A stretch of DNA of 64,000 nucleotides, taken from assembly GCA_037442745.1 (NCBI GenBank), contig JBBIPP010000004.1, positions 30,090-94,089 of the forward strand. The letters are read 5' to 3'. The position numbers were made by a program, and so were the translations under genes. The first letter of the stretch is position 1; each line of letters starts with the position of its first letter. A model generated the notes under the pieces. The model ran no database searches, had not been told where the DNA came from, and saw only the letters and a list, made by a program, of their open reading frames with translations. The DNA is from an archaeon. GTDB taxonomy: Archaea > SpSt-1190 > DYHY01. Shown in pieces: positions 9,124 through 32,213 of the stretch.

Positions 9124-9980
9124 AAGGAAATCCTGTGCTTTTTTATTTCCCGGAATTTTCCGGAAAAAAGGAGGCTTTCCAATTCCTTTCTGTTCCTCCT
9201 AATTGCGCGGACAAGCTGCTTTTCCGTCAATAGTTTCCTTTCAATGAGAAAATCCGATATCGGGACGCCCTTTTTTTTAGAAAGCTTCCAAACCAATTCA
9301 GGATGCAAATAGCCCTCTTCAAAAGGGATTCCCATGACCTTTTCAACATACCCAACTAACCCGAGAATTACCATGTCGTCAGAATCGCTCTTAACCTTGG
9401 CCGAAAAGCATTCCCCAAAAGCTGCCGAGAACTTTTCGACCATTGTCTTTGGGGATAAGAAGAAATCAGGAATGTTCGTTTTCTCCCCGTCGCAACAGAG
9501 GTTAGATATCGGGATTGCGACTGGGACACCTTTCCTTATTGATGAGAATATCCCCAGTATTCCTCCCAAGGGAAATCTCCTGCATGTGAGTGGTCTCTCA
9601 TTGTGTATTCCGCAGAGTCCGTCCGCTCCGATAAAGGGGCAACTCGAATAATAGAAAAGCCACTTTGCAATTATTGGGGGTTGTTTTTTGTCCTTTGGAA
9701 TAATTGCAGTTCCCGGCTCGAATTTTCCCTGTAGGCCCAATTTTTCGAGGTTTTTCTCAAGGCCCTTTTTTTCCCAATCAAAAATCATTACTCCTTTCAG
9801 GCCCCTGCCAGGAAGGGTTCTGTAAAATGGGCCTGTATTTCCGCGGATTACTTCGAGTTCCCTCTCGCGGGATACTGCCAAATCCCGACAGCATTTTCCG
9901 CTCCGGTCGCATCTGAACGGAACCGGCTTTTGGAAATATGGCCCAAGAACCCTTTTTTCAAGGAATTCCCGAATACTCAA
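9120..9980 (-). CDS. YkgJ-family cysteine-cluster (Zn/Fe-chelating) protein
   Basis: FRCDRSGKCC...CPFI...LCGIH.ERPLTCRRFP. Confidence 0.8.
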   Translation of the reverse strand: MSIREFLEKRVLGPYFQKPVPFRCDRSGKCCRDLAVSRERELEVIRGNTGPFYRTLPGRGLKGVMIFDWEKKGLEKNLEKLGLQGKFEPGTAIIPKDKKQPPIIAKWLFYYSSCPFIGADGLCGIHNERPLTCRRFPLGGILGIFSSIRKGVPVAIPISNLCCDGEKTNIPDFFLSPKTMVEKFSAAFGECFSAKVKSDSDDMVILGLVGYVEKVMGIPFEEGYLHPELVWKLSKKKGVPISDFLIERKLLTEKQLVRAIRRNRKELESLLFSGKFREIKKHRISF

Positions 9981-10888
9981 AGAGAGGATGTCATTGCCTC
10001 CGGAATTGACTCAACGAGCCACTGGGGAAGAACCCGTTTCCTTTTCTGAAGGCACACGTCTCCGGCAGCGCCGTTAACCCAGGCAGCGGCAGAGCAAGAT
10101 TCGAATGCTTTCTCCCCGTCAGACTGCGCCCAGAAAGTTGCCACAATTCCTGCAAGAGTGTCTCCAGTTCCCCCGACGGTCATCTCAGGGTTATGCCTCC
10201 GGTTCTCCTCGAGCTTCTTTCCGTCAGTTATTATGTCAACTCCGCCCTTTAGGAGTATTGTAACCTTTGCCTTGTCAGCGGATTTCTTCACAAATTCTTT
10301 CCTTTTTTCAAATTCCTTTGCGGGGGGGATTTTCCCGAAAATTGAGAGAAATTCCTTTTCATGGGGCGTTATTATTGATTTTTTCGGCACATATTTCGCC
10401 TTGAAAGCGTCCGCGTCAAGGACAATGTTAGCTTTCATTTTCTCAAGTTTTTTCAGGAGCTCTTCGACTGCCAAAATCGTCTCTTTTCTGTCTCCAAGAC
10501 CGTTTCCGACAACAACAACGTCCGCTTTTTCAGCCTCTTTCAAAATATAGTCAATATGGGTGGAATTGAAATAGTCCCCGGAAAGCTTGAGAGTTATCAG
10601 GTGGGGCGCATATGCGTTTATTGCCCAGGCAACATTTTCAGGCGCTGCAATTTTCACAATATCCGCTCCTGCCGCATATGCTGACAGGGCAACCAATGCC
10701 GGAGAACCGACATATTCTGGCGATCCTCCGACAACAAGAATCCGTCCATAGTCGCCCTTATGGTTTGAAAAGTTTCTCGGCTTTATTACTTGCTGTATGT
10801 ACTGCCTTGTCATCTGCGTTTTTCTCCTTTCGGTCAAGTTGCCGGGCGCATTAGAAAACGACCCGTTTTTCATCCCTTTTTCGGACAA
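9977..10888 (-). CDS. nnrD: ADP/ATP-dependent NAD(P)HX dehydratase (start may be 10873 or 10813)
   Basis: HKGDYGRILVVGGS..YVGSP, GNGLG, VLDADA, ITPHEKEF, LLKG, GGTGDTLAG. Confidence 0.92.
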   Translation of the reverse strand: MSEKGMKNGSFSNAPGNLTERRKTQMTRQYIQQVIKPRNFSNHKGDYGRILVVGGSPEYVGSPALVALSAYAAGADIVKIAAPENVAWAINAYAPHLITLKLSGDYFNSTHIDYILKEAEKADVVVVGNGLGDRKETILAVEELLKKLEKMKANIVLDADAFKAKYVPKKSIITPHEKEFLSIFGKIPPAKEFEKRKEFVKKSADKAKVTILLKGGVDIITDGKKLEENRRHNPEMTVGGTGDTLAGIVATFWAQSDGEKAFESCSAAAWVNGAAGDVCLQKRKRVLPQWLVESIPEAMTSSL

Positions 10889-10999: not shown

Positions 11000-11212
11000 T
11001 TATTTGTCTTCTTTTGATGCGCTCATTGCGAAAACAATTAGCCCGACAATTCCTGCGGCAACAAGCCCGTATGTAATGAATTGGCCTGAGAAGTTTATTC
11101 CTTCTAGGCCGAAAATAGTTTTCCATCCGGGCGTTGTAACAACCAGAAGCAATACTATTCCAAGAGCCCCTATCAGTACCAGTTTCTTGTCAAAAATCGG
11201 TGCGTCTCCCAT
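11000..11212 (-). CDS. Small 2-TM membrane protein (membrane-protein array)
   Basis: Two hydrophobic segments; resembles the C-terminal half of 11729..12268 (W.TIFG vs WQILFG; GIVGLIV vs GLVGLVA). Confidence 0.75.
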   Translation of the reverse strand: MGDAPIFDKKLVLIGALGIVLLLVVTTPGWKTIFGLEGINFSGQFITYGLVAAGIVGLIVFAMSASKEDK

Positions 11213-11218
11213 ATTGTT

Positions 11219-11238
11219 TCTCTCTCTCTCTCTCTCTC
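11219..11238. repeat. (TC)10 microsatellite immediately upstream of the 11212 start codon
   Basis: Direct reading; it is (GA)10 on the coding strand. Confidence 0.9.
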
Positions 11239-11333
11239 CTTCATTTTGTTTTATCTACATTTCTTGACCGGCTTCGCCGGATCTCACTTCGTTCTAGTTC
11301 GGAACCTCGGATTTTCTCTCCTAGGCTCTTAAT

Positions 11334-11654
11334 TTACTCTTTGTTCGCGTTGTTGTTAACGAAGGCATTAACAACAAGGACAATCAGGACAATTATCAGA
11401 ATAACTCCGGCTTTCCCTAGTAGCCAAGACAAAAATTCACCGACAATTGGCATGCTTGCGAGGAATAGGGTTGCGACAAGGGCGGATACTGCCGAAATTG
11501 CGGCAGCAAGCCAGACTTCATCAATTACTCCGGAGCTCTTGAGGACAACGAACATCACCAAGAAAATCAGGACGAACGGCAATATTACCGAATAAACTCC
11601 CTGCTGTACTGCCTGATCAATCACTCCTTCAATTGCATTCGCAAATAGGTACAT
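11334..11654 (-). CDS. Small multi-TM membrane protein (array family)
   Basis: YSVILPFVLIFLVMFVVLK motif; about 3 TM segments. Confidence 0.8.
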   Translation of the reverse strand: MYLFANAIEGVIDQAVQQGVYSVILPFVLIFLVMFVVLKSSGVIDEVWLAAAISAVSALVATLFLASMPIVGEFLSWLLGKAGVILIIVLIVLVVNAFVNNNANKE

Positions 11655-11728
11655 GTTCTTTTTTTCCCTCACTTTGTTTTATCCATATTCTTTGGTTCGG
11701 AACCTCGGGTTTACGCCCATCGGCTCCT

Positions 11729-12268
11729 TTAGCTTCCATTTGGCTTGTCGTCGCCTTTGCTCATAATTATTGCGACTAGGCCAACTAGCCCTGCGACAAC
11801 TCCGACTGTCACAAGGGCGTTGTTGTCAATGTTAAAGTCCGCTCCGAATAGTATCTGCCATGTGTTCGGGCTCGAATTGAGCGCGAATACAACAAGTAGG
11901 ACCGCTCCCCCGAAAATGACTAGCCCGTATTTCCACTCTTCCCCTTTTCTTATGAAATCGGTCGCGTTTTTCATGACATTGTAGACGAACATTGTTATCA
12001 TCAGGGTGAACATCAGGACAATTATTGTCAGAAAGCCCTTTCCGGAGAATATTGAGAGGAAACGGCCAACCTGATAGACTCTTGCGAAATAAAGCACGAA
12101 TAGGCCGAGAATCATTGAAACAATTGCGTCAATCCCAGGCTTCCCTCCGAGAATCTTCGCCTGCTGGAGTATTGCATAGATTACAAAGAACGCCAATAGG
12201 AAAGGCAGGACATAGTCGAAGAACCCCTGCGCAACCAGATTAGCTATTGTTTCGTCAACGAATGCCAT
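11729..12268 (-). CDS. Multi-TM membrane protein (array family)
   Basis: FDYVLPFLLAFFVIYAILQQAKILG..IDAIVS motif; about 5 TM segments. Confidence 0.85.
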   Translation of the reverse strand: MAFVDETIANLVAQGFFDYVLPFLLAFFVIYAILQQAKILGGKPGIDAIVSMILGLFVLYFARVYQVGRFLSIFSGKGFLTIIVLMFTLMITMFVYNVMKNATDFIRKGEEWKYGLVIFGGAVLLVVFALNSSPNTWQILFGADFNIDNNALVTVGVVAGLVGLVAIIMSKGDDKPNGS

Positions 12269-12293
12269 TTTTGTATTTCATTTCCCCCATTTT

Positions 12294-12620
12294 CTATATA
12301 TTATGCTTTTCCCCGTCAATATACCGCTCAATAAGGCCTCCCAAATGTATGTGCTTGGCATAGACCCGGATTGCCCATAACTCCCTCGCAATTGAGAGTA
12401 GCAAGAGGACAAAGAGCCAAGGAAAGACAAATGTCCGGAATATTGATAGAAGCTCGGTGACTCTCGAAGCTTCCCCGGAAAAGAAGGAAACAACAACCAA
12501 AATGGACAGGAGAACAGTTGCAATTGTAGATGCGATCGCCAGCCTGTCCGAACCCTCCTTGAACTGCGCGAAATTTGTGTGGGTGCCTTGTGAGCCGGTT
12601 TTTGGTTGTTTTTTTGCCAT
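12294..12620 (-). CDS. Small 2-TM membrane protein
   Basis: Basic N-terminus, two TM segments, ..IARELWAIR.. similar to ..FWRELRELR.. in 17478..17834. Confidence 0.75.
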   Translation of the reverse strand: MAKKQPKTGSQGTHTNFAQFKEGSDRLAIASTIATVLLSILVVVSFFSGEASRVTELLSIFRTFVFPWLFVLLLLSIARELWAIRVYAKHIHLGGLIERYIDGEKHNI

Positions 12621-12621
12621 T

Positions 12622-13146
12622 TTATTTTTCAAACATTTTTATGTCTTTGAATTGGGACTTGCTCGGAGCATCTGAGCCCAAGAACGAGCCGATATTGTCA
12701 AGATAAGTAAGTCCAGAGTCAATTTCCATTCCTGCTTTGTTGATGTCTTGGGCGAACCGGAATCCCCATAGGAAATGCCCAATTGTCCACCAGAAAGCCA
12801 TAAGAATGAATATCAGAGTCAGCATTGGTATCCAGACACCAGAACCGGTTGCCGAGCTTCCGAGAAAAGTCTGGAGCATCTGGACTACCTGCCAATATAC
12901 CCCGAACCGAGCCCCGAAAAGGGAGAATATTATTGCAATCCACATTGCAGTTGTTTTCCTGAAAAAGCCCATCAGATAAATAAAGTCGTAGAGAATGAAG
13001 AACATAAGGACGCCCGGCAGGATGTATGCGAAAATAACAGTTGACATCGGACTCCCTGTTGTTCCCAAAAGAATGTTTATTATTGAGAGGACGAACCCTC
13101 CAATGTCGTTAATTACGCTAACAATTGTCCCTGCATCAAATGCCAT
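12622..13146 (-). CDS. Tandem membrane protein, copy A
   Basis: 174 aa; core near-identical to copies B and C, unique termini; SD-like GGAGG. Confidence 0.88.
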   Translation of the reverse strand: MAFDAGTIVSVINDIGGFVLSIINILLGTTGSPMSTVIFAYILPGVLMFFILYDFIYLMGFFRKTTAMWIAIIFSLFGARFGVYWQVVQMLQTFLGSSATGSGVWIPMLTLIFILMAFWWTIGHFLWGFRFAQDINKAGMEIDSGLTYLDNIGSFLGSDAPSKSQFKDIKMFEK

Positions 13147-14123
13147 TGTCTTTTCCTCCTATTATTTCTCACCCAATTTTTCAAGCCGTGTCCCAATTGT
13201 CTTGAGTAAATGAAGTGCAGCCCCCTGTTTGTGCTGTTCGGTTGCGACTGCTTGAGCGAACCGGAATCCCCATAGGAAATGCCCAATTGTCCACCAGAAA
13301 GCAATCAAAATGAATATCAGAGTCAGCATTGGTATCCAGACACCAGAACCGGTTGCCGAGCTTCCGAGAAAAGTCTGGAGCATCTGGACTACCTGCCAAT
13401 ATACCCCGAACCGAGCCCCGAAAAGGGAGAATATTATTGCAATCCACATTGCAGTTGTTTTCCTGAAAAAGCCCATCAGATAAATAAAGTCGTAGAGAAT
13501 GAAGAACATAAGGACGCCCGGCAGGATGTATGCGAAAATAACAGTTGACATCGGACTCCCTGTTGTTCCCAAAAGGACGTTGATTATTGTTAGCAAAAAC
13601 CCGCCAATATCGTTCAGAAAGCCATTTATTGTCCCAGCATCCAATGCCATATCTTCTTTCTCCTTTTATTTAGATCCCAATTGTTCTAGACGGCTTCCAA
13701 TCCTGTCAAGAACACCGATTGCACTCTCTATTTTGTCGCTTTCCTTGTAAACAGCACTGGCAAACCGGAATCCCCATAGGAAATGCCCAATTGTCCACCA
13801 GAAAGCCATAAGAATGAATATCAGAGTCAGCATTGGTATCCAGACACCAGAACCGGTTGCCGAGCTTCCGAGAAAAGTCTGGAGCATCTGGACTACCTGC
13901 CAATATACCCCGAACCGAGCCCCGAAAAGGGAGAATATTATTGCAATCCACATTGCAGTTGTTTTCCTGAAAAAGCCCATCAGATAAATAAAGTCGTAGA
14001 GAATGAAGAACATAAGGACGCCCGGCAGGATGTATGCGAAAATAACAGTTGACATCGGACTCCCTGTTGTTCCCAAAAGGACGTTGATTATTGTTAGCAA
14101 AAACCCGCCAATATCGTTCAGAA
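12755..14123. repeat. Three direct repeats with an exact 504-bp period (cores 12755-13071, 13259-13619, 13763-14123)
   Basis: About 317 bp shared by all three; B differs from A/C at 3 nt; B and C share a further ~44 bp. Confidence 0.95.
13162..13650 (-). CDS. Tandem membrane protein, copy B
   Basis: 162 aa; SD-like AAGGAG upstream. Confidence 0.88.
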   Translation of the reverse strand: MALDAGTINGFLNDIGGFLLTIINVLLGTTGSPMSTVIFAYILPGVLMFFILYDFIYLMGFFRKTTAMWIAIIFSLFGARFGVYWQVVQMLQTFLGSSATGSGVWIPMLTLIFILIAFWWTIGHFLWGFRFAQAVATEQHKQGAALHLLKTIGTRLEKLGEK

Positions 14124-14154
14124 TGCTTACGAATGTCCCCGAATTTATTGCCAT
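13666..14154 (-). CDS. Tandem membrane protein, copy C
   Basis: 162 aa; SD-like AAGGAG upstream. Confidence 0.88.
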   Translation of the reverse strand: MAINSGTFVSILNDIGGFLLTIINVLLGTTGSPMSTVIFAYILPGVLMFFILYDFIYLMGFFRKTTAMWIAIIFSLFGARFGVYWQVVQMLQTFLGSSATGSGVWIPMLTLIFILMAFWWTIGHFLWGFRFASAVYKESDKIESAIGVLDRIGSRLEQLGSK

Positions 14155-14291
14155 TTTCTCTTTTCTCCTTTTTTGATTATTTATTCGGCCAGTTCCCTTT
14201 ATTTTCTCTTTCTAGCATTTATAGTTTGCCGATTTAAGGGCAGTGTCCAAATAACAGCAACCCCAAAATCCTTAATGGTATTACCACTCGA

Positions 14292-14308
14292 TAATTTATA
14301 TAGTTTCC
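14292..14308 (-). promoter_or_regulatory. Putative BRE/TATA promoter for the tandem membrane-gene operon
   Basis: Minus strand GGAAACTATATAAAT about 140 nt upstream of ATG 14154. Confidence 0.5.
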
Positions 14309-14312
14309 CATC

Positions 14313-14873
14313 TTATTTGAACTTGCTGAAAGCTGGAGCCCAGCCAGAACTTCTCTCAGCCTTTTGGGAATTGACAATTGACTGCTTGTTTGAGCCCTCC
14401 CTGTTCCCGAGCCGTGCAGCAGTCTGACCAATCAGGGTCAATATCTGCCCGCCCCCCGAGAGCTCAGCCAAGCCCTTGGAAGCTGCCCTGGCAGTGACAA
14501 ACCCTATGAAGAAATTGCTCATGAACCAATAGACAATCACGAAAGTGAAGACTGTTATGAACATTGCAATGAATAGTCCTGTTTCCCCGAAAATCGGCTC
14601 TAAAAAGAGGGAGTTAACGAATGTGTTATAGTCGTCATAAAATCCGAAATGGGCGAACATTAGGGCGAAGACCGCAGCCATTACTGTTGCGGTTATTTTC
14701 CTGAAAAACCCCATCAGATAGAAGAGGTCTTCCAGCGTGAAAAAGACGAGGAGCGCAGGAATTGCATAGAGGAAAATTATCTCATACCAAGGCTGTCCCT
14801 TGCCCCCGAAAATCATGTTGAAAATTGTCCAGAAGAATTCCGGGACATTGAAATAAAGTTCCTCTCCTGCCAT
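14313..14873 (-). CDS. Membrane protein, diverged paralog of copies A-C
   Basis: YAIPALLVFFTLEDLFYLMGFFRKITA vs YILPGVLMFFILYDFIYLMGFFRKTTA; ..LTLIGQ..RLG tail. Confidence 0.85.
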   Translation of the reverse strand: MAGEELYFNVPEFFWTIFNMIFGGKGQPWYEIIFLYAIPALLVFFTLEDLFYLMGFFRKITATVMAAVFALMFAHFGFYDDYNTFVNSLFLEPIFGETGLFIAMFITVFTFVIVYWFMSNFFIGFVTARAASKGLAELSGGGQILTLIGQTAARLGNREGSNKQSIVNSQKAERSSGWAPAFSKFK

Positions 14874-16711
14874 TATTTGTTCCCCCCGAATTTCGAGCCC
14901 AAGTTCCTGAAGAATCCGCCAATCGAATTCTTTGCCGCCCCCAGCACTCCTGCTGGAACAACCCCGATGTCCTTGTTAATGTTGGCGTATTTCCACTTTT
15001 CCTGCTGGTTAGGAGTCATGGTTTTTCCTTGCCAAGGATTCACCGACTTAATCCGGGTTGTCCAAGAGTCTTTTGCCTTTTCAACAGAGCCACCTATCTC
15101 GTCAGTAACATCCCCGAACTTGTCTTTTCCTTTCGAGACTTTCTGGGAAATCTTGCCATATGCGCTCGTGCTCTTGATCATTCCGAGGATGAATTTTGGA
15201 AGAACGGTTACTGGGAGAGTGAGATAGAGGAAAAGCACCCTTATTCCGATTGAAGTCACTATAAGGAGAAGGTAGAAGAGCGCGGCAACTATTGCGTTCA
15301 TGAAGAGGTCCAGTGGGTTTGCTGGGACGGCTGTCCCTGAAAGGGGTTTTGCCAAGGAAACAATATAGAGGGTTCCCAAGAACTGGAATGCGAGCCGAAT
15401 AAGGGAATTTAGGACAGGTATTGGTCCTCCGTTGAAGGGCAAAAGTATCCAAATAACTACTGGTCTTGGAAGGAAGACTGCCAGGAGAAAGACAGACTTT
15501 TCCACAGCGAATGCGACAATCTGCCACATCCAGAACGCCCAAAAAGTCGCGGGGATTATTGATGCCCAGATGTTGACGCAGCTCGTCGGCTCCCTTACCG
15601 GAATATATTCGTAATAGGACGCAATTCCGAAAATATTCATGCTTGTTGCAAAAGCCACTACAAGAAGAAAGATCCACACATATCCGAGCTCAATTACTGA
15701 AAATGCCCTGAAAACGTCGTATATTGTGGATTTTATAGCTTCCCTTCCGGCAATGGCGCCCTTCTTCGCTCGGAGGCGCTCTGACGCGTCATTGCTTTTG
15801 CTTGCGCCGTCACCGGCGCCTCCGGCAACTCCTCCCATCAGCCGATCGTCAACTCCGGGAATTCCGGTAGATTTGTCCAAGAACTGGTCGGCAAGATGCG
15901 TTGCTTTCTGGACGAAACTGAGCTCGTCATAGTCGCTGTCCGCAGTTGCCGCGACATCGAGAATTCTCGAGTATTCAGTATCTCCTATTGTGCTTTGGAT
16001 TACTTCCTTTGCAAATGTTGCCTTCCAATTGTCCGGCTCGAGGAATTCTTTTTGCAAGTCCTCCGGAGGAGCGGCAAGGGTCTCGAAAAGTATTATCAGG
16101 AAAAGAATCCATCCGAAAAGAATCCATGCGGCAATGTTTGTCGATAGGGTGAATATCACAAAAAAAAGCGCAGCAACTATCTTTATCCAAGACGCATTTT
16201 TGAAAGCGAAACGCCCTAGAATCATCAGGACAATCCCGATTCCGAGGAAAACATAAGAGAGTTCTTTGCTCACATTTATTAGGGGCCTGTCATAATCCGG
16301 TCCGCACGCATTCTCAAGCTCGTTTTCCGAAATCCCATAGCTCTCGACAACCCTCGGGCCAAAGTTCTCCGGCGGTTTAGCTGGCAGATTGTCCCATTCC
16401 CTTGCGGATTGCGTTATCTGCCCGAAAAGTGGGGCAATTCCTTTGTCCCAGAATGTCTGAAGTATGCCAAAGAAGCTGTTGTCGCCTACCGAAGAAAAGT
16501 CGAGGCAAAGGCCGGTTGTTGTGCAGGATTCGGGGGTTCCTCCCGTAAGGCCGGACTCTCCGGAAGGATCTCCCCCGTCAATCGGGGAAAGAAGAGGGTC
16601 CTCTGAGAATGCCGGGGCAGGCGAAAGAGCAAGAATGAAAACAAGGGTTAGGATGGGGAAAATTTTCCAAATGCTCGAGAATTCCCATCTCATTTTCCGG
16701 GAAGCCCCCAT
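14873..16711 (-). CDS. Large polytopic membrane protein with signal peptide (track start 16771 is TTG; 16711 preferred)
   Basis: Signal-like N-terminus (..LVFILALSPAPAFS), 8-9 hydrophobic segments, large internal loop; TATA-like element at ~16735-16742. Confidence 0.82.
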   Translation of the reverse strand: MGASRKMRWEFSSIWKIFPILTLVFILALSPAPAFSEDPLLSPIDGGDPSGESGLTGGTPESCTTTGLCLDFSSVGDNSFFGILQTFWDKGIAPLFGQITQSAREWDNLPAKPPENFGPRVVESYGISENELENACGPDYDRPLINVSKELSYVFLGIGIVLMILGRFAFKNASWIKIVAALFFVIFTLSTNIAAWILFGWILFLIILFETLAAPPEDLQKEFLEPDNWKATFAKEVIQSTIGDTEYSRILDVAATADSDYDELSFVQKATHLADQFLDKSTGIPGVDDRLMGGVAGGAGDGASKSNDASERLRAKKGAIAGREAIKSTIYDVFRAFSVIELGYVWIFLLVVAFATSMNIFGIASYYEYIPVREPTSCVNIWASIIPATFWAFWMWQIVAFAVEKSVFLLAVFLPRPVVIWILLPFNGGPIPVLNSLIRLAFQFLGTLYIVSLAKPLSGTAVPANPLDLFMNAIVAALFYLLLIVTSIGIRVLFLYLTLPVTVLPKFILGMIKSTSAYGKISQKVSKGKDKFGDVTDEIGGSVEKAKDSWTTRIKSVNPWQGKTMTPNQQEKWKYANINKDIGVVPAGVLGAAKNSIGGFFRNLGSKFGGNK

Positions 16712-16810
16712 ATCTGTCTTTTTTAGCTCTTTCCAATATAAATAATGTCTCCCGAGTGGGAAAATTGGCAAAGTATAAAAGTAAGATTTTCCCGAGAGTC
16801 CCAGTCAAAC

Positions 16811-17461
16811 ATGGCGAAAGGCAGGGGATTATTTTCAAGAATTGCCGGGCGAAAGGGGGAAGGCGACAACGATGTTTTCATGTATGCTTTCATTGTTGTC
16901 TTGCTGGTTGCTGTAGGGACTTATGCAAGCAATTCAGGTGTCGGAGGGGTTTTTTTCAGCGCAATTAACAACGCATTTTCCAAGCTCGGTCTGCTTACTT
17001 CCTCCTCGTGCCCTTTCTATAGCAATGTTAATACTGCCGCATGGGCGTGCATTGTTGTTTTCGGGATAATCCCATTCATTATTGTCTATTACTTTACATT
17101 TGATGCATTGAGCTTCACTTTCATGACAACGCGGACAAAGGGAATGCTTTCCCTCGGAGTTTCAATGATTGCAACAGTTCCAATGAACGGACGCTCACTT
17201 ATTGCGAGCCTCAGCGCTACTCTTGAGCAGTTTACAGTACTGCTCCTTCCTCCAATTGGTCAAGGAGGACTTGGTAACTGGGGCGGATTCCTTGCAATAA
17301 TGCTGATAATGGCGCTTATTTCAGGTTTCTTGGGTCAGCTTGCTCTTACTTCCCAGATGGCGAATGCAGCAGTCCTGTCCCTGCAGGAGACAATATGGGG
17401 ATACAGGGCAATGAACCAGATAGGAAAAGCGGTTACTGCGACTGGAAAGAAAGAAGGTTAG
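16811..17461 (+). CDS. Membrane protein (array family), first gene of the divergent arm
   Basis: FGIIPFIIVYYFTFDAL..F.T.RT motif; C-terminal ..MNQIGK; TATA GTATAAAA at ~16773. Confidence 0.83.
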   Translation: MAKGRGLFSRIAGRKGEGDNDVFMYAFIVVLLVAVGTYASNSGVGGVFFSAINNAFSKLGLLTSSSCPFYSNVNTAAWACIVVFGIIPFIIVYYFTFDALSFTFMTTRTKGMLSLGVSMIATVPMNGRSLIASLSATLEQFTVLLLPPIGQGGLGNWGGFLAIMLIMALISGFLGQLALTSQMANAAVLSLQETIWGYRAMNQIGKAVTATGKKEG

Positions 17462-17477
17462 GGAGCAGTTTCCTGAA

Positions 17478-17834
17478 ATGGCGCCCGCAGTGAAAAAAGG
17501 GGAAAAGAAAAAGCCCTTTGAGACTGCATCAATTTCCCTTTTTCTCGAGCATCTGGACGGCTTTCTTTTATCAGTCCTCAAATACGTCCTCTCGGCAATC
17601 CTCCTTTTCTCCCTTGCAATTGCCCTCTATTCATTCTTCTCCGGAAACGCATGGTCCGACTTTTCAGTTACGCAGGCCGGAGCGAACACAATTTCCGCGG
17701 TTGTCGCCCTTTCGTTGATAATTTTCTGGAGGGAGCTACGGGAACTCCGGCTCTGGCTTGAGGGAATGTCAGAACACCATTCAAGGCATACTTATTCCCG
17801 CTTGGATTATTCCGCAAAAAGGAAGGGGGCATAA
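17478..17834 (+). CDS. Small 2-TM membrane protein
   Basis: Same architecture as 12294..12620; stop overlaps the next start (TAATG). Confidence 0.78.
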   Translation: MAPAVKKGEKKKPFETASISLFLEHLDGFLLSVLKYVLSAILLFSLAIALYSFFSGNAWSDFSVTQAGANTISAVVALSLIIFWRELRELRLWLEGMSEHHSRHTYSRLDYSAKRKGA

Positions 17835-18583
17835 TGCCAGTTTTTTCTCTCGGGAAATTGGAGAAACTGCAGTTCGTTTCACTTGCCTTGCTTCTCCTCC
17901 TTTTGGCTCCTGCACATTCCGCCACTTCGGGCGCCGCGAACACAGATCTTGTTTCAAAAGGAAGGGGCTTTGCGGACGAGCTCTTTGGCCCGATGTTTGC
18001 GCTCCTTGAGCCTTTCGGATTTGGGGCGAACAACCAGTATTCAATGATCCAATTCCTTGCAGCATTCACGCTGATATTCTTCCTTGTGAAGGAAATTACG
18101 CCCGGAACCTCTGACTTTGCCGCATTCATTGCAACAATGCTAGGAGCTGGCGCAATAAACTTCATTTTCCGGCTGGACTGGTACACTTTCTTGATACATT
18201 TCTCCCCTGCTCTCCTGATGTTTTTCTTCCTTCAGGACATCCTCGCTAGGTTCTCCTTCATGTTCCGGAGCACGGCCAAATGGATTGCCCTCTTCGGAAT
18301 GATTCTTGTCTTCTACACAGACTATGCGCTCTTCACTGACAACGGAATTTTTGGATTTTTCTTCAACAAACTGTTCGGGGAAGGGTATTCGTTTTTCCTC
18401 GAGCCTTGGTCAATAATACTTTTCGCGCTTCTTGCGACTCTTGTGCGGATGTTCGGTCTCATTGAGAAGGTCTTCAAGTCTGAGAGCGCTAACCAATACA
18501 GGTACCAGATGCAGGCGGCAGTGAACATTATTCAGCAGGAAGTTGTAAAGGGAGGAATGAAGGACCTTGCAAAGAAAAAGTGA
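17834..18583 (+). CDS. Membrane protein with signal peptide (array family)
   Basis: HFSPALLMFFFLQDILARFSFMFRSTAKWIA matches the family motif. Confidence 0.83.
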   Translation: MPVFSLGKLEKLQFVSLALLLLLLAPAHSATSGAANTDLVSKGRGFADELFGPMFALLEPFGFGANNQYSMIQFLAAFTLIFFLVKEITPGTSDFAAFIATMLGAGAINFIFRLDWYTFLIHFSPALLMFFFLQDILARFSFMFRSTAKWIALFGMILVFYTDYALFTDNGIFGFFFNKLFGEGYSFFLEPWSIILFALLATLVRMFGLIEKVFKSESANQYRYQMQAAVNIIQQEVVKGGMKDLAKKK

Positions 18584-18616
18584 GGTTTTTATTCCGGAAC
18601 AGGAGGGCGTCTTGCA

Positions 18617-19228
18617 ATGGACCTAATAATCCTCATAATAACCTTGGTCTGCCTAACTACAATAATAAAGCCATTCACATTCCCCGGAGACAGCAATTTC
18701 GAGGACGCTTCGTCAACTCTAGCCATTTTCCTCGGAATCCTCGCCTATTTCTACGGAGTCGATTTCTTCCCGGCAACCTCGTTTTTAGCGCCCCTCCACA
18801 TTATAACAATAGGCCTGGTGAACGCATTTTCAATAATAGATCTTTTCATACTGACTATTCTTGGAACCCCCCTGACACTGAACCTCATTTTCGTTGTAAT
18901 AGTCCCCTCAATGGTTGTCTATAAGATTGCAAAGGAGCTCTTCTCATATACGGAGATACTCTCAAAGACAACCGAGAACTTCATTGCATCAATAGTCGCT
19001 TTCATCTCAATGGTTGCGGCAGTCAGGGGCGACTTTAACCTGATTCAGATTGTCTGGAGCGCTCTCACATATTTGGTGAGCTATGTTACCGGTCAGAGCT
19101 CATTATACCTGATGACTGTCTCAATAACGGTTATTTCGGTAATTGTTCTTGCAGTTGCCATTGCATTCGAGACAATGACTGTCAAGTTCGTCCTTCTTCT
19201 TTCTAACGGTTCCGCAGAAGCAGAATAG
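18617..19228 (+). CDS. Polytopic membrane protein (array family)
   Basis: VIVPSMVVYKIAKELFSYTEILSKTTENFIA; SD GGAGG. Confidence 0.8.
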   Translation: MDLIILIITLVCLTTIIKPFTFPGDSNFEDASSTLAIFLGILAYFYGVDFFPATSFLAPLHIITIGLVNAFSIIDLFILTILGTPLTLNLIFVVIVPSMVVYKIAKELFSYTEILSKTTENFIASIVAFISMVAAVRGDFNLIQIVWSALTYLVSYVTGQSSLYLMTVSITVISVIVLAVAIAFETMTVKFVLLLSNGSAEAE

Positions 19229-19360: not shown

Positions 19361-19903
19361 ATGGCAAAACCTGAAAACGCACGTGAGTTGTGGGGGGAAA
19401 TGTTCGTTAACAATGAGGGTATAATTAAGAGGTATGTAAATGATCTTGCAAACTCAGCCAAAGAGTTTCCTTATTATGGAGGTTTGGCGGGATTTTTGGG
19501 AGAAGGCGCTTCAAGAATAGGCAAGGCAGTAAGTTCTTATGCAAGAGGTCCTGTGGCAGCTAAAAAGCCGGCAGAAGGGCCGGCAGAAGGGCCGGCAGAA
19601 GGGCCGGCAGAAGGGCCGGCAAAAACCGATGACGGCCCAGGCGGAGACGTGAAGACTCTCGGCTATAAGGAGATACTTAATCGCCTTGAGGAACTTGCGA
19701 GGGGGCAACAGAATTCTCCTTCCATCCCGTTCACTGCGAAAACTCCCGCTAGTTCGCTCTACAAACCCCAACCGAATGAACCTTCAAAGCTAAATAAGGG
19801 ACTGGAATATCTGGCGTTTGTTCTTGGCCCGGACTTTGAAAGTTATGTTCCCCAGCTAAATGATCTCGGAGCACGTGGAGTTATAAAGACGTACCCAATC
19901 TAA
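19361..19903 (+). CDS. Hypothetical protein with (PAEG)4 linker
   Basis: 180-aa ORF with its own AT-rich promoter region. Confidence 0.75.
   Translation: MAKPENARELWGEMFVNNEGIIKRYVNDLANSAKEFPYYGGLAGFLGEGASRIGKAVSSYARGPVAAKKPAEGPAEGPAEGPAEGPAKTDDGPGGDVKTLGYKEILNRLEELARGQQNSPSIPFTAKTPASSLYKPQPNEPSKLNKGLEYLAFVLGPDFESYVPQLNDLGARGVIKTYPI
19567..19621. repeat. 12-bp in-frame tandem repeat GCCGGCAGAAGG x4.6
   Basis: Direct reading. Confidence 0.95.
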
Positions 19904-19909
19904 ATTTCA

Positions 19910-20233
19910 TCAATCCAAGAAAAACGGGATGGAAGAAATCTCCCCTCCCGCCCGCCTTTTCTTTTCAATTGTGAATGTTCCTAGAAATTCTTCCGGAACC
20001 CGGAACTTACCGAAATGCAGGCCCGAATCAACATATCCCCAAGAAATTATCGCCGCTTCGAACGCCTCGACAAATTTTCCCTCTTTCAGGAAATGTTTTG
20101 CGTCCGAAAAATAGGACTTGGCCAGAAGAAGAACTTGTCTTGTCTCTTCGGACTCCTCAACAATTTCAACCTTTTCAATGAACGAGCCAGTCCGTTCAAC
20201 TTCTCGCCGGGCAACCTTTTCCATCCTGTTCAT
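19910..20233 (-). CDS. DUF357-family protein
   Basis: AKSYFSDAKHFL..G..VEAFEA...WGYVD; adjacent to dph5 as is common in archaea. Confidence 0.85.
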   Translation of the reverse strand: MNRMEKVARREVERTGSFIEKVEIVEESEETRQVLLLAKSYFSDAKHFLKEGKFVEAFEAAIISWGYVDSGLHFGKFRVPEEFLGTFTIEKKRRAGGEISSIPFFLD

Positions 20234-20234
20234 T

Positions 20235-20936
20235 CTAATCGAACCTGAACCATTTGAGGAAAGCCTCCTCAGTGAAATGGAGCTTTGCCGGAATTACCAA
20301 GCAGTGGGGAGCCTTCCCGAACTCGAGTGCTTCCAATTTTTCGGCTTCCCCCCAGGCAATTTTCATGTCGGGCCTGTTCGCACGGGAGAGGACAACGAAC
20401 TCCGGGAAGAACGCTTTCAGGTGCCTTATTGCTTCCTTCGGATTCATTCCAATATCAAGAAGAACGAGCGTGTGGAGGTCTGCCGAGAGGTTCTTCTTCG
20501 TGTATTCGACAACTGAAGGGAATTCTCCAAATGATGGGAGGGAGACAGTCCGGCCGAACTTGTAAAGCTGGAGGCCCGTCTTTCCGACTGCAGTGAAAAT
20601 CGATGGCGCAGAGACAATCTCGCATTGGACGCCCTTCTCCCTCGCCTCTTCAATCAATGCAAGATGGGTTGTCGCGGCAAGAGGGTCTCCGGAAACTAGT
20701 ATTGCCACTTTCTGCCCAAGAGCCTTTTCAATCAATTCGGCAGAATTGTTCTCGAAATCCTCCCGTTTTGCCCTTAAAAATTCCCGCCCCGTGACTTTCT
20801 CAAGATAGGCAATCTGAACCGGGGAAATTGTGTTTGTATAGTCCTCAAGATAGACAATATCCGCCGACTTTACTTCGTTTACCCCTTTGAGTGTTATTTC
20901 CGACACATCAAGCCCAAGACCTATCAGGACAAGCAT
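20235..20936 (-). CDS. dph5: Diphthine synthase
   Basis: LIGLGL...ITLKG...YLEDYT...GDPLAATTH...GLQLYKFGRTVS...LHTLVLLDI...LHFTE. Confidence 0.95.
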   Translation of the reverse strand: MLVLIGLGLDVSEITLKGVNEVKSADIVYLEDYTNTISPVQIAYLEKVTGREFLRAKREDFENNSAELIEKALGQKVAILVSGDPLAATTHLALIEEAREKGVQCEIVSAPSIFTAVGKTGLQLYKFGRTVSLPSFGEFPSVVEYTKKNLSADLHTLVLLDIGMNPKEAIRHLKAFFPEFVVLSRANRPDMKIAWGEAEKLEALEFGKAPHCLVIPAKLHFTEEAFLKWFRFD

Positions 20937-28272: not shown

Positions 28273-31200
28273 ATGTGTTTGGAAACGGTGGCAGAAAGAA
28301 AACTCTCTTTCTTAGGGATTTCCTTATTTTTAGCCCTTAATCTGTCCTTGTTGTCGTTTTCCCTATTTTCCGGCTATTCCGCCTTTGAAATAACCCTCAT
28401 TTATCCGGAAAATCTCTTCTGGACGAATCTTGACAACTTCTCATTGAATTTCACTTTCAATGCTACTAGCGACATCGATTCCGGAGGAGTGTGCTCCCTA
28501 TATCTCGGAGATGCGGTTGTCGGGACAGTCAATGCGACGAACTCGACTCCCGCAAACATAACTTCAGTGGCAGCGTTTTCTCAGGGGAACAACACTTGGC
28601 TAATATCCTGCACGAACTCGACAACTGAGAACTCTTCTGTTTCGATTTTCAGGTATGATGGTGTTGCGCCTGCCGTCTCTTCTCTTTCTCCAGCAGTTTC
28701 ATATTCCACAGCAGTCAATGAAACAAATTTTACTGGACAGGCAACTGACGCATTTACAATCTTCTCGCTTTCATTGTGGGGCAATTTCACCGGAACTTGG
28801 GCCATGAATTCCTCCAACATCTCATATTTGAACGGAGCCAACTGGACAGTTTCCCCGGGCGCTCTGAGCGAAGGAGTCCATCTCTGGGCGTTTTTTGCGA
28901 ACGATTCTGCAGGTAACGGGAATTTTTCAGAGAACAGGACGCTTGTTTTCGACTATACTCCCCCAACCAATTCCCCACTCTTCCCGGACAACCAGTCTTT
29001 CAAGAGTTCTGCCCTCCCCAATTTCTCATTTGCAGTCTCTGATGCGCTCTCCGGAGTCTCCTCATGCAGGGCGCTAATTGGGAACTCGACAGCTAACTAT
29101 ACCAATTCGACAATTTCTCCATCCCAAGGCTGGTGCAACTTTACCAACTTTTCCCTCTCAGGCCTCCAAAGCGGGCAATACGCCCTTTTCTTCAAGGTCA
29201 ACGATTCCGCCGGAAACGAGGCTTGGAACAGCACAATTTCACTGAATGTCGACGACATTGCCCCCCAAATCTCCTATGTAATCCCGAACAACACAATTTT
29301 CCTCTCGAACGCATCATTTACAATTTCCTTCGGCGAATCAGCGAACCTCTCCTGGATTGCGAATTCGACTGGAAACATCACCAACTCTACCGGTGAATCA
29401 ATCTCAGTCAATTCCCACCTTCCCACAGGAAACTACCAATGGACTGTTTTCGCAAGGGACTCTGCCGGAAACAATAACAAGACAACATTCAATTTCACTG
29501 TGAACCGCACTAGGCCGTTCGTCAATTCAACCATTCCAGCTGACGGCTATTATACGAACGATTCCACAGTCAACTTCACTTTCAATGTGACTGAGGAAAC
29601 AAACTCCTCAATGTATTGCGCAGTCCATCTCGACGGCGTCCTTAACGCGACAACCGCGAACTCCTCAGTCCTGAACAACACTCTTACAACAATATCAATT
29701 CCGGGAATTGCTTTCGGTTACCACACCTGGCGGGTTTCCTGCGCTAACTCTGAAAACACAACCTATTCGGAGACCAAGGATTTCGATGTGAGGAATGTCA
29801 ACGCTTCATCTCTCGATTTTCCCTCATATGTCCCACGGAACAAGGTCGTTTACCTGAATGCGTCCGTCCTAGCTTTCAAGAATTCGGAGAACGTTACCCT
29901 CTCAGTCTCCCTTCCATCAGGATTTTCAATTCTTTCGAACATAACTGATGCCTCCAACTGGACAGGTTCAGCGTCAGTCTGGAACTCTGCCATTCCATCT
30001 GGAAGCTCCCTTTGGCTCAATCTGACAATCCTTGTTCGGAACAACGCGTCTCTTGGGAGCTCTTCAATAACAATAACTGCCAACTCTTCCGAAGGGCACG
30101 GAGTCTCAAAAAAGCTCTCTTTCTCAGTTCTCCAGCCATCATCTAACCTGACTTTCTCTCCGGCCCAAATCAACCTGACTGCCGAAAAATCAGTCAACCT
30201 AACTCTTCCGAACAACGGAACTGGGAATATCACCTCATTCAATCTGACATTCAATCCAGCTTATTTCAACATAACGAACGCCTACAACCTCTCCTCCGGG
30301 TGGTTCTGCAACCACGCTTCCTTCTATCTGAACTGTTCCGGAGGTGGGATTGTCCAAAATTCGTCCGCTCTCTTCAACCTCTACCTGAAAGCCGGGACAT
30401 CTGATGGAAACTCCACCGGGACAGTCCATCTTTACGACTCCCTCGGCGGGAATTCTACTGTGAACTTCTCCGCCCCGGAAATCCTGAAAATTGGGGTTGT
30501 TTCCTCCAATTCGACAAGGACCTTAACTAGGAACGAAACAAACTCAAAGTCATTCACCCTGAATTTCACGAGCACGGGAATTCTTACGCCGAACACTTTC
30601 AACGGGACATTCTCGCCAGTCAATTTCACCTCGCTTAACGTCACCGGATATGGGGGGAACCTGACTTGCTTCAATTCAACTTCAACATCCCACCCTTCCG
30701 CCCCGAACACTTCATTCTACTGCAACGGAACATCCGGCTATGTAACTTTCCGCTTGACAGCGAACTCCTCCGCTCTCGGGATAACTCAGGGGGCTTTTGT
30801 CTCATCAAACGAAACTACTTCAAGCTTCGCGCTCGACCCGCTCAATTTCACAATCCAAAAGGCTCCGGAAGTGACAATCTTAATTGACGCGAGCCCGACA
30901 TCAGTCTCAATCGGAGGTTCCACTGCCCTATTGGCGGAGATAATAAACTGCTACGGCTCGTCCTATTGCGCAAACATCGTGAACGCTGCCGCAACCTGGA
31001 GCGTTATTTCCTCGAGCGGGACATGCTCCAGCACATTCACAAATCCTTCCTACTACTTCAGTCTCGAATCAAGGACGCCCGAAAATACGACAGTTGAATA
31101 CAACACAGGCCAGCAGACAAAGGCGGTCGCCTCGGTTGCGAGCACCTGCATTTACACAATGTCATTCACCGGCCTTGACGCGAACACGGGGGCGAACGTC

Positions 31201-32211
31201 ACATCAGTTTCCGTCACCACAAAGACAGTCACTGCGGTGAATTCGACGACAACTACGACCGTTGCTCCGGAAAACCCCTCAATTCCTCCGGTCGTTTCAA
31301 CCCCAACCCTTTCCCTCACACTCTCACCTACATCCCTTGCTGTGACAAAGGGTACTTCAAGGACAATAACCGCGACAGTCCGGCTTACCGGCCCTTCCCT
31401 TTCCACTGCGCTCTCCCTTTCGGCGAACGAGACTGGCATATACGCAATATCAATCTCCCCTTCTTCGTTTTCAAGCATATCTAATGCAACTTCCCGGAGC
31501 TTTACAATAACTTTGACTGTTCCCTCCACAACAGCCACGGGCTCAAGGGCTGTGAAATTCACCGCAACCTCCGGCTCTTACTCGGCGAACGCTGTCCTGA
31601 CTGTCCTAGTTCTCGATAGTTCGACAGCTGGGAACCAGACTGTCAATGCAACGAACAGCTCAGTTTCCGATTCAACTGCGAACAATACAAATTCTTCAGG
31701 GGGCGGGTCATTGGTGGCGAACGTCACAGCGCCGAATACCACAAAGGAGCTTGAAAGCGCGCTTCTGAAATTGGGCCTTCTTTCAAAGGAGCTAGGCGCC
31801 TTCAGCCTAGAGGGCGAGAACACCACAATTGCGAGCGAGCTTGTCCTGAATGCGACTGAACTGCTGAAAAAGGCCTCGGACGCCCTCCTTCGGGGGAACA
31901 TGTCAGAATACGAATGGTTCCTCTCTGCTGGAAAATCGGCGCTCTCCAAGGCAAGCGCGCAGGTATTCTCAATAAAGGTGAGGCGGGCGTGGCCAATACT
32001 CCTCTATTCATTGGGAGCAGTCCTCTTGATTGGCCTTGTATCTGCAGGAGCATATGCAATTCTCTCTGGAAAGCAGGCAATTCTTCCGAAAAGAGCGACA
32101 GTTGCCGGAACGAAAAAGGAGATTACCTCAGTTCTCGAAGAGTTTTCAAGCGAGATAAAAGAGCCCTTGGAAAAGAAGAAAAAGGCGAAAGATGAAGGGA
32201 GGTCTTTGTAA
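28273..32211 (+). CDS. Large cell-surface glycoprotein (Ig-like repeats, Thr/Ser linker, C-terminal TM)
   Basis: 1312 aa; signal; very dense N-x-S/T; repeated W...A.DSAGN motifs; TM and Lys-rich tail. Confidence 0.88.
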   Translation: MCLETVAERKLSFLGISLFLALNLSLLSFSLFSGYSAFEITLIYPENLFWTNLDNFSLNFTFNATSDIDSGGVCSLYLGDAVVGTVNATNSTPANITSVAAFSQGNNTWLISCTNSTTENSSVSIFRYDGVAPAVSSLSPAVSYSTAVNETNFTGQATDAFTIFSLSLWGNFTGTWAMNSSNISYLNGANWTVSPGALSEGVHLWAFFANDSAGNGNFSENRTLVFDYTPPTNSPLFPDNQSFKSSALPNFSFAVSDALSGVSSCRALIGNSTANYTNSTISPSQGWCNFTNFSLSGLQSGQYALFFKVNDSAGNEAWNSTISLNVDDIAPQISYVIPNNTIFLSNASFTISFGESANLSWIANSTGNITNSTGESISVNSHLPTGNYQWTVFARDSAGNNNKTTFNFTVNRTRPFVNSTIPADGYYTNDSTVNFTFNVTEETNSSMYCAVHLDGVLNATTANSSVLNNTLTTISIPGIAFGYHTWRVSCANSENTTYSETKDFDVRNVNASSLDFPSYVPRNKVVYLNASVLAFKNSENVTLSVSLPSGFSILSNITDASNWTGSASVWNSAIPSGSSLWLNLTILVRNNASLGSSSITITANSSEGHGVSKKLSFSVLQPSSNLTFSPAQINLTAEKSVNLTLPNNGTGNITSFNLTFNPAYFNITNAYNLSSGWFCNHASFYLNCSGGGIVQNSSALFNLYLKAGTSDGNSTGTVHLYDSLGGNSTVNFSAPEILKIGVVSSNSTRTLTRNETNSKSFTLNFTSTGILTPNTFNGTFSPVNFTSLNVTGYGGNLTCFNSTSTSHPSAPNTSFYCNGTSGYVTFRLTANSSALGITQGAFVSSNETTSSFALDPLNFTIQKAPEVTILIDASPTSVSIGGSTALLAEIINCYGSSYCANIVNAAATWSVISSSGTCSSTFTNPSYYFSLESRTPENTTVEYNTGQQTKAVASVASTCIYTMSFTGLDANTGANVTSVSVTTKTVTAVNSTTTTTVAPENPSIPPVVSTPTLSLTLSPTSLAVTKGTSRTITATVRLTGPSLSTALSLSANETGIYAISISPSSFSSISNATSRSFTITLTVPSTTATGSRAVKFTATSGSYSANAVLTVLVLDSSTAGNQTVNATNSSVSDSTANNTNSSGGGSLVANVTAPNTTKELESALLKLGLLSKELGAFSLEGENTTIASELVLNATELLKKASDALLRGNMSEYEWFLSAGKSALSKASAQVFSIKVRRAWPILLYSLGAVLLIGLVSAGAYAILSGKQAILPKRATVAGTKKEITSVLEEFSSEIKEPLEKKKKAKDEGRSL

Positions 32212-32213
32212 AA

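Follow-up and report, generated by a model that had tools for sequence, protein, structure and literature searches.

Within a 64,000-nucleotide (nt) stretch of archaeal DNA (the window; positions 30,090-94,089, forward strand, of contig JBBIPP010000004.1, assembly GCA_037442745.1), positions 11000-19228 hold 13 open reading frames (ORFs) for hydrophobic proteins, arranged as two diverging arms, a minus-strand one of nine genes (g1-g9) and a plus-strand one of four (g10-g13). Hydropathy peaks of transmembrane (TM) strength are present in all 13 products, which span 2-7 hydrophobic helices; the divergent 13-gene membrane-protein array of the original prediction, which had been made from the DNA letters, is thus confirmed with respect to both ORF layout and hydropathy. 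The genome from which the window comes is 1.14 Mb in size (20 contigs, 94.5% complete), which supports the DPANN-like organism that had been proposed. The cluster is a real, conserved and unannotated system. The genes, and the spacer between the two arms, are as follows (positions are those of the window; aa, amino acids).

g1, 11000-11212, minus strand: 70 aa, 2 TM, subfamily F; resembles the last two helices of the 5-TM form
g2, 11334-11672, minus strand: 112 aa, 3 TM, short form of subfamily B
g3, 11729-12268, minus strand: 179 aa, 5 TM, long form of subfamily B; motif GFFDYVLPFLLAFF
g4, 12294-12632, minus strand: 112 aa, 2-TM 'REL' protein (ARELWAIR)
g5, 12622-13146, minus strand: 174 aa, subfamily A, tandem copy 1
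g6, 13162-13650, minus strand: 162 aa, subfamily A, tandem copy 2
g7, 13666-14154, minus strand: 162 aa, subfamily A, tandem copy 3; C-terminal IG helix
g8, 14313-14873, minus strand: 186 aa, subfamily A (older paralog; 33-34% identity with g5-g7)
g9, 14873-16711 (ORF to 16771), minus strand: 612 aa from the ATG at 16711; separate family
Divergent spacer, 16712-16810: 99 base pairs between ATG 16711 (g9) and ATG 16811 (g10), the likely starts
g10, 16811-17461 (ORF from 16745), plus strand: 216 aa from the ATG at 16811, subfamily C; motif GIIPFIIVYYFTFD, C-terminal IG helix
g11, 17478-17834, plus strand: 118 aa, 2-TM 'REL' protein (WRELRELR)
g12, 17834-18583, plus strand: 249 aa, subfamily D; signal-peptide-like N terminus; motif HFSPALLMFFFLQD
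g13, 18617-19228, plus strand: 203 aa, about 5-6 TM

Each arm has one REL protein (g4 and g11) and one member with a signal-peptide-like N terminus (g9 and g12), as predicted; g9 further combines several TM helices with an outer domain that contains Cys, and has a conserved block, LPRP...PF.GGP. The twin TATA boxes that had been proposed at about 16735-16780 are probably both present in the spacer, i.e. a TATA-like box AATATAAATAAT at 16735-16746 for the minus arm and another, AAAGTATAAAAG, at 16770-16781 for the plus arm (both read directly from the sequence), each of these A/T-rich elements lying some 28-34 nt upstream of one start. Each of g5, g6 and g7 has a GGAGG or GGAGA motif 6-10 nt ahead of its start, and a T-rich tract follows g1; we regard these as signs of real genes. 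Within the minus arm, a 32-nt direct repeat (81% identical; copies at 11297-11328 and 11695-11726) occurs in the spacers 11213-11333 and 11673-11728, upstream of g1 and g2 respectively, and a run of GA dinucleotides immediately precedes g1. The repeat and the GA run may be shared regulatory or processing elements.

Paralogy within the cluster

Relationships among the proteins were analysed by all-against-all BLAST and then by hhalign comparison of subfamily profiles enriched with homologs from relatives. BLAST reveals 83-85% mutual identity among g5, g6 and g7, and matches of g8 to g5-g7 (E ~2e-23 to 2e-22), of g2 to g3 (E 8e-10), of g12 to g5-g8 (E ~1e-4) and of g3 to g5-g7 (E 0.005-0.015). 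With hhalign, A (g5-g8) pairs with C (g10) at 95% (E 2.6e-8), C with D (g12) at 93%, A with D at 89% and A with B (g2 and g3) at 82%. Subfamily hidden Markov models (HMMs), run against the 9166 six-frame ORFs (>=40 aa) of the genome, matched cluster members only, including across subfamilies at E 3e-5 to 5e-3 (the A HMM finds g10 at 3e-5, and the D HMM finds g5-g8).

These comparisons give good support to the proposal that g2, g3, g5-g8, g10 and g12 constitute one paralogous family, of which g13 is possibly a divergent ninth member (hhalign 23.7% with family A, E 8.5e-4, in the motif region). The original prediction, the seven quoted motif strings of which are all found in the cluster translations, held that at least nine proteins share one helical motif. 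The profile and HMM check that it suggested reveals related subfamilies and matches that are cluster-specific across the genome, and bears out the claim for eight proteins; the link to g13 is weak, so that homology is well supported for eight rather than nine. By the same comparisons g4 and g11 are a separate 2-TM REL pair (hhalign 46%, E 2e-4, for g4 versus the g11 family; common motif [W/A]REL[W/R]..R), and g4 has no BLAST match at 1e-3 across seven relatives' loci. Membership of the hairpin family was ruled out for g9, which gives hhalign values all below 1% with the profiles of A-D, E and H and is, by sequence comparison, an unrelated family.

The composition of g3 is that of a g2-like part plus a g1-like part. 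Residues 121-175 of g3 match g1 (BLAST E 0.002), the F HMM matches g1 (5e-25) and g3 (5e-24) only, genome-wide, and g1 orthologs terminate the same gene order in six relatives' loci. Given that the order long B, short B, F recurs in relatives from the same class, g2 and g1 look like a split 5-TM gene.

Within family A, five columns (D54, G60, R63, T66 and G153) do not vary among the 17 sequences of the alignment, and the first four of these columns are positioned on and just after TM1 in g7. As predicted, five proteins (g5, g6, g7, g8 and g10) end in a '..L..IG..' helix, the glycine of which is invariant in all 17 aligned relatives. In many relatives the first conserved helix is preceded by a signal peptide and a segment rich in Cys, which argues that the N-terminal side probably faces outward.

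The g5-g7 genes form a tandem triplicate with a repeat spacing of 504 nt and a 300-nt core that is 99-100% identical. Nucleotides 91-390 of the three genes are identical or nearly so (g5 is identical to g7 there), and the first 90 and last ~100 nt are 30-87% identical per 30-nt window, with the exception of nt 31-90 of g6 versus g7 (97-100%). The mosaic of a conserved core and diverging termini fits gene conversion rather than a single recent duplication. Public contigs (Logan, two runs) break inside the repeat, and a 317-nt core unitig has ~2.4-2.8x the depth of its flanks, which is compatible with three copies of the core, although contig depth is not copy number.

Searches of family libraries gave little. 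None of the 13 proteins matches a Pfam family at E<=0.001 (best E 0.0064), three cluster proteins searched against NCBIfam matched no family, and PHROGs gave no family beyond two uninformative rows (E 1.7e-5, 'membrane protein'; 1.8e-4, unknown); the cluster is unannotated, as had been claimed. Identity with DUF2070 was considered and rejected as compositional. Weak matches to the first ~200 positions of DUF2070 occur in 31 of 92 family B members (best E 0.0013), below threshold; no B member reaches its 30-bit cut-off, g3 matches no family at E<=1, the genome has no DUF2070 match at E<=1, and 10 of the 14 control genomes, bacteria among them, also give weak matches.

Conservation in the class and neighbourhoods in other archaea

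Distribution was analysed in 121 genomes, comprising 17 from the class to which the window's genome belongs (itself included) and 104 from outside it. Below, G-numbers denote relative genomes, L-numbers fetched loci, C-numbers contigs of the window's genome (the membrane cluster is on C4) and f3 one group of small genomes in the class. The relatives are mostly labelled 'Candidatus Altiarchaeota archaeon' at source, with one each labelled 'Candidatus Micrarchaeum sp.', 'archaeon' and 'Candidatus Undinarchaeales archaeon'.

Family A is present in 16 of the 17 class genomes, the missing one being 72% complete; with g7 alone as query, 15 of the 16 other class genomes were matched, versus 1 of 24 outside the class. 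The arm order F-B-B-A(-I) and C-H-D(-E) recurs in G004, G006/G008 and L027 (in G006/G008 without g9), and small f3 genomes carry an A-A-B-B-F arm. Conservation in relatives, the absence of which would have counted against the original prediction, is thus evident in both the recurring two-arm layout and the 16 genomes with the family. A locus search with a narrower family A alignment found three loci. A role in host contact, as had been proposed, would be conjectural; the family extends also to two class genomes of 3.6-3.8 Mb (G006 and G008). Homologs of g9 occupy the same position in L013, L026 and L027, orthologs of g11 are present in L026 (44% identity) and L027, with the g11 motif also found in G006/G008, in a protein of 112 aa whose gene separates C from D, and L027 has an ortholog of g13 (37% identity, E 5e-30). 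The cluster families are rare in large sequence collections: two word-index searches returned 9 and 13 family A proteins, and g9 has five homologs at E<=0.001 among 1.84 billion representatives.

In G006/G008 (L014 5288-8899, L015 3149-6760) a 1203-aa protein lies directly beside the F-B-B-A arm and is followed by a 318-aa 4-TM protein; the former has N-terminal and C-terminal hydrophobic segments, like an S-layer (surface-layer) protein or adhesin. Hot-spring metagenome contigs (two runs, from other studies) cover parts of 11012-17036 with a likeness from <90% to ~95-99%, many substitutions and a replaced segment inside g9 (14884-15170 skipped). These differences imply that there is, elsewhere, a related population in which the outer domain of g9 has diverged.

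The orphan-like, unannotated character of the genes and the three near-identical tandem copies are what one might see in the cargo of a virus or mobile element, or in a chance run of unrelated hydrophobic ORFs. Such an origin is extremely unlikely, however, given the presence of the family in 16 of 17 class genomes, the specificity of the HMMs across the genome and the lack of any PHROG structural or replication family in the cluster. The GC content of the cluster (0.45-0.48) matches that of the remaining window, and housekeeping genes flank it: a gene for NAD(P)HX dehydratase at 9977-10888, genes of the DUF357 and TP_methylase families at 19910-20936, the latter of which we read as diphthine synthase, and a Trm5/TYW2 gene. 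Just downstream of g13, on the same strand, is one further gene, which may or may not belong to the cluster.

g14, 19361-19903, plus strand: 180 aa, soluble, PAEG repeats

The g14 product has no TM peak and no match in Pfam or PHROG.

Family B has a much wider distribution than family A. Its profile matches 127 proteins at E<=0.01, none of them with a meaningful Pfam domain, from sources named Undinarchaeales, Nanoarchaeota and Woesearchaeota among others. Among the 121 genomes it occurs in 32, i.e. that of the window, 15 of the 16 others in the class and 16 of the 104 outside it; all 16 outside-class genomes are 0.5-1.6 Mb in size and usually have 2-4 tandem 5-TM copies. The cluster member nearest to this DPANN-wide family is g3. 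Both g3 and g2 display its profile similarity and its LPFLL-type first helix, and the family A profile matches a 92-sequence DPANN-wide B profile at 86.9% (E 4.2e-6) across TM1-loop-TM2. Tandem paralogs, a further feature of the DPANN family, are present as g3-g2-g1 and g8-g7-g6-g5. Together, these likenesses make it very probable that the paralogous proteins of the cluster belong to a DPANN pilus-associated membrane family, expanded and rearranged in an Altiarchaeota-type manner.

The association with a pilus is apparent from the non-class loci, in 8 of 10 of which (those fetched) the tandem B genes adjoin the following parts.

First coiled-coil protein: 190-310 aa
Second coiled-coil protein: 130-145 aa
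ATPase: 753-766 aa, FlaI/TadA/VirB11-like, with scores below family cut-offs
TadC-like platform: 690-760 aa, 6-9 hydropathy peaks (7-10 TM)

Of the 16 non-class genomes, 11 have family B no more than 3 kb from the ATPase ortholog, one has it at 12.5 kb and four have the two on separate contigs; in the class, G002 (L027) and G004 keep the adjacency. An ATPase ortholog is present in all 32 B-positive genomes (E<=1e-89) versus 19 of 89 B-negative genomes (E<=1e-140), a contrast that is inflated by the relatedness of the genomes to one another and is not an independent statistic. In three of three f3 loci examined, the coiled-coil ortholog adjoins the membrane cluster, with the ATPase on another contig. 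The window's genome has a corresponding locus on C6 (1727-18141), where genes for a coiled-coil pair, an ATPase (766 aa) and a platform (711 aa) are accompanied by seven or more genes for Cys-rich pilin-like proteins, several of them with class III signals of the RKG type; one gene includes a masked run (X). Between the ATPase and platform genes, on the opposite strand, C6 encodes a further coiled-coil protein of 454 aa. By eye, gene N termini resembling those of the window's TP_methylase-family and DUF357 genes are found no more than a few kb away from the membrane/ATPase module in L027, L055, L057 and L058; the presence of such look-alikes in distant DPANN archaea hints at a very old gene neighbourhood.

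Further genes elsewhere in the window may bear on the cell surface or stand out by their size. Makarova et al. 2016 (PMC4858521) describe a link between FleN/MinD ATPases and archaeal pilus systems. At 28273-36765, giant ORFs (1312 aa with a Big_13 immunoglobulin-like domain, and 1183 aa without a Pfam match) flank a MinD/ParA-type ATPase gene (32214-33263), which, in view of that link, may mark another surface-structure locus. A 1294-aa subtilase (Peptidase_S8; 47321-51205) and a 1184-aa protein with a SecA_DEAD-like segment (60296-63850) are both unusually large for a 1.1-Mb genome.

A possible membrane base for a filament-like machine

The synteny in DPANN archaea suggests a model in which the cluster is a lineage-specific expansion working as the membrane base of a type-IV-filament-like machine, to which we give about an even chance. 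The unit shared by the family would comprise an outward N-terminal helix, a proline-kinked TM1 (xxLPxLLxF), a short basic cytoplasmic loop and TM2. In most DPANN lineages, 2-4 tandem 5-TM copies of the protein occur beside the two coiled-coil proteins, the ~760-aa ATPase and the TadC-like platform. It is conceivable that A, long B and short B plus F each correspond to one position of a DPANN membrane 'trio'. In the class, diversification may have produced a long B (g3), a split copy (g2 and g1), A (g5-g8), C (g10), D (g12) and perhaps g13, with three of the A copies probably homogenised by gene conversion, and with the two 2-TM REL proteins and the large g9 as likely additions. The products are proposed to form a hetero-oligomeric membrane base or scaffold partnering the filament-like machine. 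The cytoplasmic C-terminal amphipathic helices of the cluster proteins would then point toward the coiled-coil proteins and the ATPase, with the N-terminal parts, which in relatives bear Cys-rich ectodomains, directed outward.

Several observations weigh against this model. The membrane cluster (C4) and the coiled-coil/ATPase/platform/pilin locus (C6) are unlinked in the window's genome, and family B and the ATPase are on different contigs in 14 of the 16 class genomes with B, including that of the window, although many of these contigs are short. The C6 pilus locus looks complete without the cluster and has its own pilin-like genes. Even where B genes are adjacent to the module they are usually convergent with the coiled-coil genes and outside the ATPase operon. 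A tie of g9, g4, g11 or g13 to the DPANN module would be hypothetical, and the A-B link is supported by ~60 hydrophobic columns.

Much of this would be expected if the cluster encoded a stand-alone envelope complex (for example a channel, a machinery that handles lipids or solutes, or a scaffold belonging to an Altiarchaeota-type cell envelope) without a working link to a pilus, the synteny reflecting inherited order or co-regulation. That is the main rival to the membrane-base model and we consider it possible, if rather unlikely. Besides the separation from the ATPase and the C6 locus with its own pilins, it accords with the cluster's own divergent promoter spacer, with the invariant polar residues D54, R63 and T66 of family A lying next to the membrane, as is often the case in channels and transporters, and with g9, the REL proteins and the ectodomains of relatives, which are without counterpart in other DPANN archaea. 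Against a stand-alone complex, no match to any transporter or channel family was found for the cluster proteins in the libraries searched, and the adjacency of B and the ATPase persists across lineages in which the ATPase orthologs are 45-50% identical; gene order is usually not kept over such divergence without selection. Further, the coiled-coil genes, which are beside the membrane genes in f3 and beside the ATPase here, tie all three together.

With respect to a bolder variant, the Altiarchaeota trio may have turned into an independent envelope-spanning apparatus, i.e. a ring or helical gate of about ten hairpin paralogs plus g9, with ectodomains between the two membranes reported for Ca. 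Altiarchaeum, that anchors or passes surface fibres (type IV-like or hami). We regard this as unlikely. Perras et al. 2015 (PMC4460559) describe the anchoring and assembly of hami as unknown, and that paper, in the text available to us, contains no genetic link of hami to the cluster.

DPANN archaea depend on cell-surface machinery that is poorly understood, and the published work that we retrieved describes its motor and coiled-coil proteins rather than the membrane family. The present results add that the family reaches Altiarchaeota-type genomes, that it can detach from the motor locus, and that expansion to 13 genes in two operons is possible, with some copies bearing ectodomains and others gene-converted. 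They also define a gene set for proteomics, cryo-electron tomography and co-purification, and the genomes in which the family is linked to or unlinked from the motor provide a natural contrast for distinguishing part of a filament from a separate envelope complex.

Structural searches and comparison with known systems

AlphaFold2 models of g7 (predicted local distance difference test score, pLDDT, 76) and g3 (pLDDT 85.8) have five and seven predicted helices, respectively. Foldseek searches with these two models found no solved structure in the PDB at E<=0.001, the best VIA-align rows are generic helical bundles (Z<=7.4), and searches of PDB sequences with the A and B profiles gave nothing below E 0.067. 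In the ESM Atlas the nearest cluster (0.86) is unnamed and mostly archaeal, and serves as a lead only. The original prediction also supposed that the cluster matches no known complex. That part stands insofar as there is no named library match, and has to be qualified insofar as the DPANN synteny places the family beside a type-IV-filament-like module.

One candidate for a related architecture is the FliP/FliQ/FliR (SctR/S/T) gate, which likewise has paralogous hairpins in fused and split forms. A helical pore or gate of this kind, or like VirB6, with a filament or other surface fibre passing through it, could account for the several hairpin paralogs, for the fused long form g3 beside the split g2 and g1, and for the tandem copies; moreover, SpaQ is the top PDB sequence match of the B profile (E 0.067) and SctR chains are in both Foldseek lists (E 2.9-7.9, TM-scores 0.20-0.32). 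All such matches are, however, at noise level (root-mean-square deviations up to 24 A), which makes the likeness an analogy at most; these searches gave no significant similarity, no type III system is present, VIA-align favours generic bundles, and the 25 Pfam families that the 92 members match most often include no Bac_export family. A gate of this type is accordingly an improbable description of the cluster.

The original prediction had raised a VirB2/CedA-like pilus. VirB2/TraA, CedA1 and TedC are small helical hairpins with a basic inter-helix loop, and the cluster, with its several paralogous small hydrophobic helical proteins and basic loop between helices, resembles them to that extent. 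The identification of the cluster proteins as pilins of a conjugation-type or DNA-import pilus is nonetheless unsupported and very improbable. Its members have 3-5 TM helices, more than such pilins; the genome has no match to the VirB4 family PF03135, and its three HerA/DUF87-type ATPases are on C7, C9 and C14, not C4, such that no VirB4/CedB-type ATPase is linked to the cluster; and the ATPase that is the conserved neighbour in other genomes is of FlaI/TadA rather than VirB4 type. The Foldseek check for pilin-like folds, proposed with the prediction and run on the g7 and g3 models, lists no such pilin chain, nor do VIA-align or the PDB profile searches, although a missing match does not exclude a fold.

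Nor do the proteins resemble type IV pilins or archaellins, which are defined by a short basic N terminus, a [KR]G-type class III cleavage site, one hydrophobic helix and a globular domain; the cluster proteins have no RKG-type site and 2-7 hydrophobic helices. In the texts returned by full-text literature searches, the neighbouring ATPase/coiled-coil machine is described and the membrane family is not. A 2026 PLoS Genetics census (PMC13705601) reports scattered type IV filament genes in DPANN, and Makarova et al. 2019 (PMC6393860) report DPANN pilus islands with unrecognised pilins, as far as the accessible portions of these papers extend. Makarova, Koonin and Albers 2016 (PMC4858521) describe, in the sections available to us, a subclade 4F ATPase in nanoarchaea in which no cognate pilins could be identified. 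By description only, subclade 4F and the module reported here share a FlaI/VirB11-superfamily ATPase, a TadC-like partner and an intracellular coiled-coil protein; they differ in that the cluster proteins are not pilins (no class III signal, 3-5 TM) and are not among the accessory proteins described in those sections.

The closest published counterpart is that of Hamm et al. 2024 (Nat Commun 15:6449, PMC11291902), who report, in cluster 2 DPANN and in Undinarchaeota, a pair of conserved loci that resemble those of type IV pili and comprise CpaF, TadC and coiled-coil proteins (CCPs). The words 'transmembrane', 'membrane protein' and 'paralog' do not occur in the main text of that paper, which does not describe the membrane family. 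The Hamm loci and ours have the same ATPase, platform and two-coiled-coil module, found here on C6 and in relatives directly beside the membrane family. They differ in that Altiarchaeota are not among the lineages for which that text lists the loci, and in that the window's genome has its membrane genes, expanded to 13, on a separate contig.

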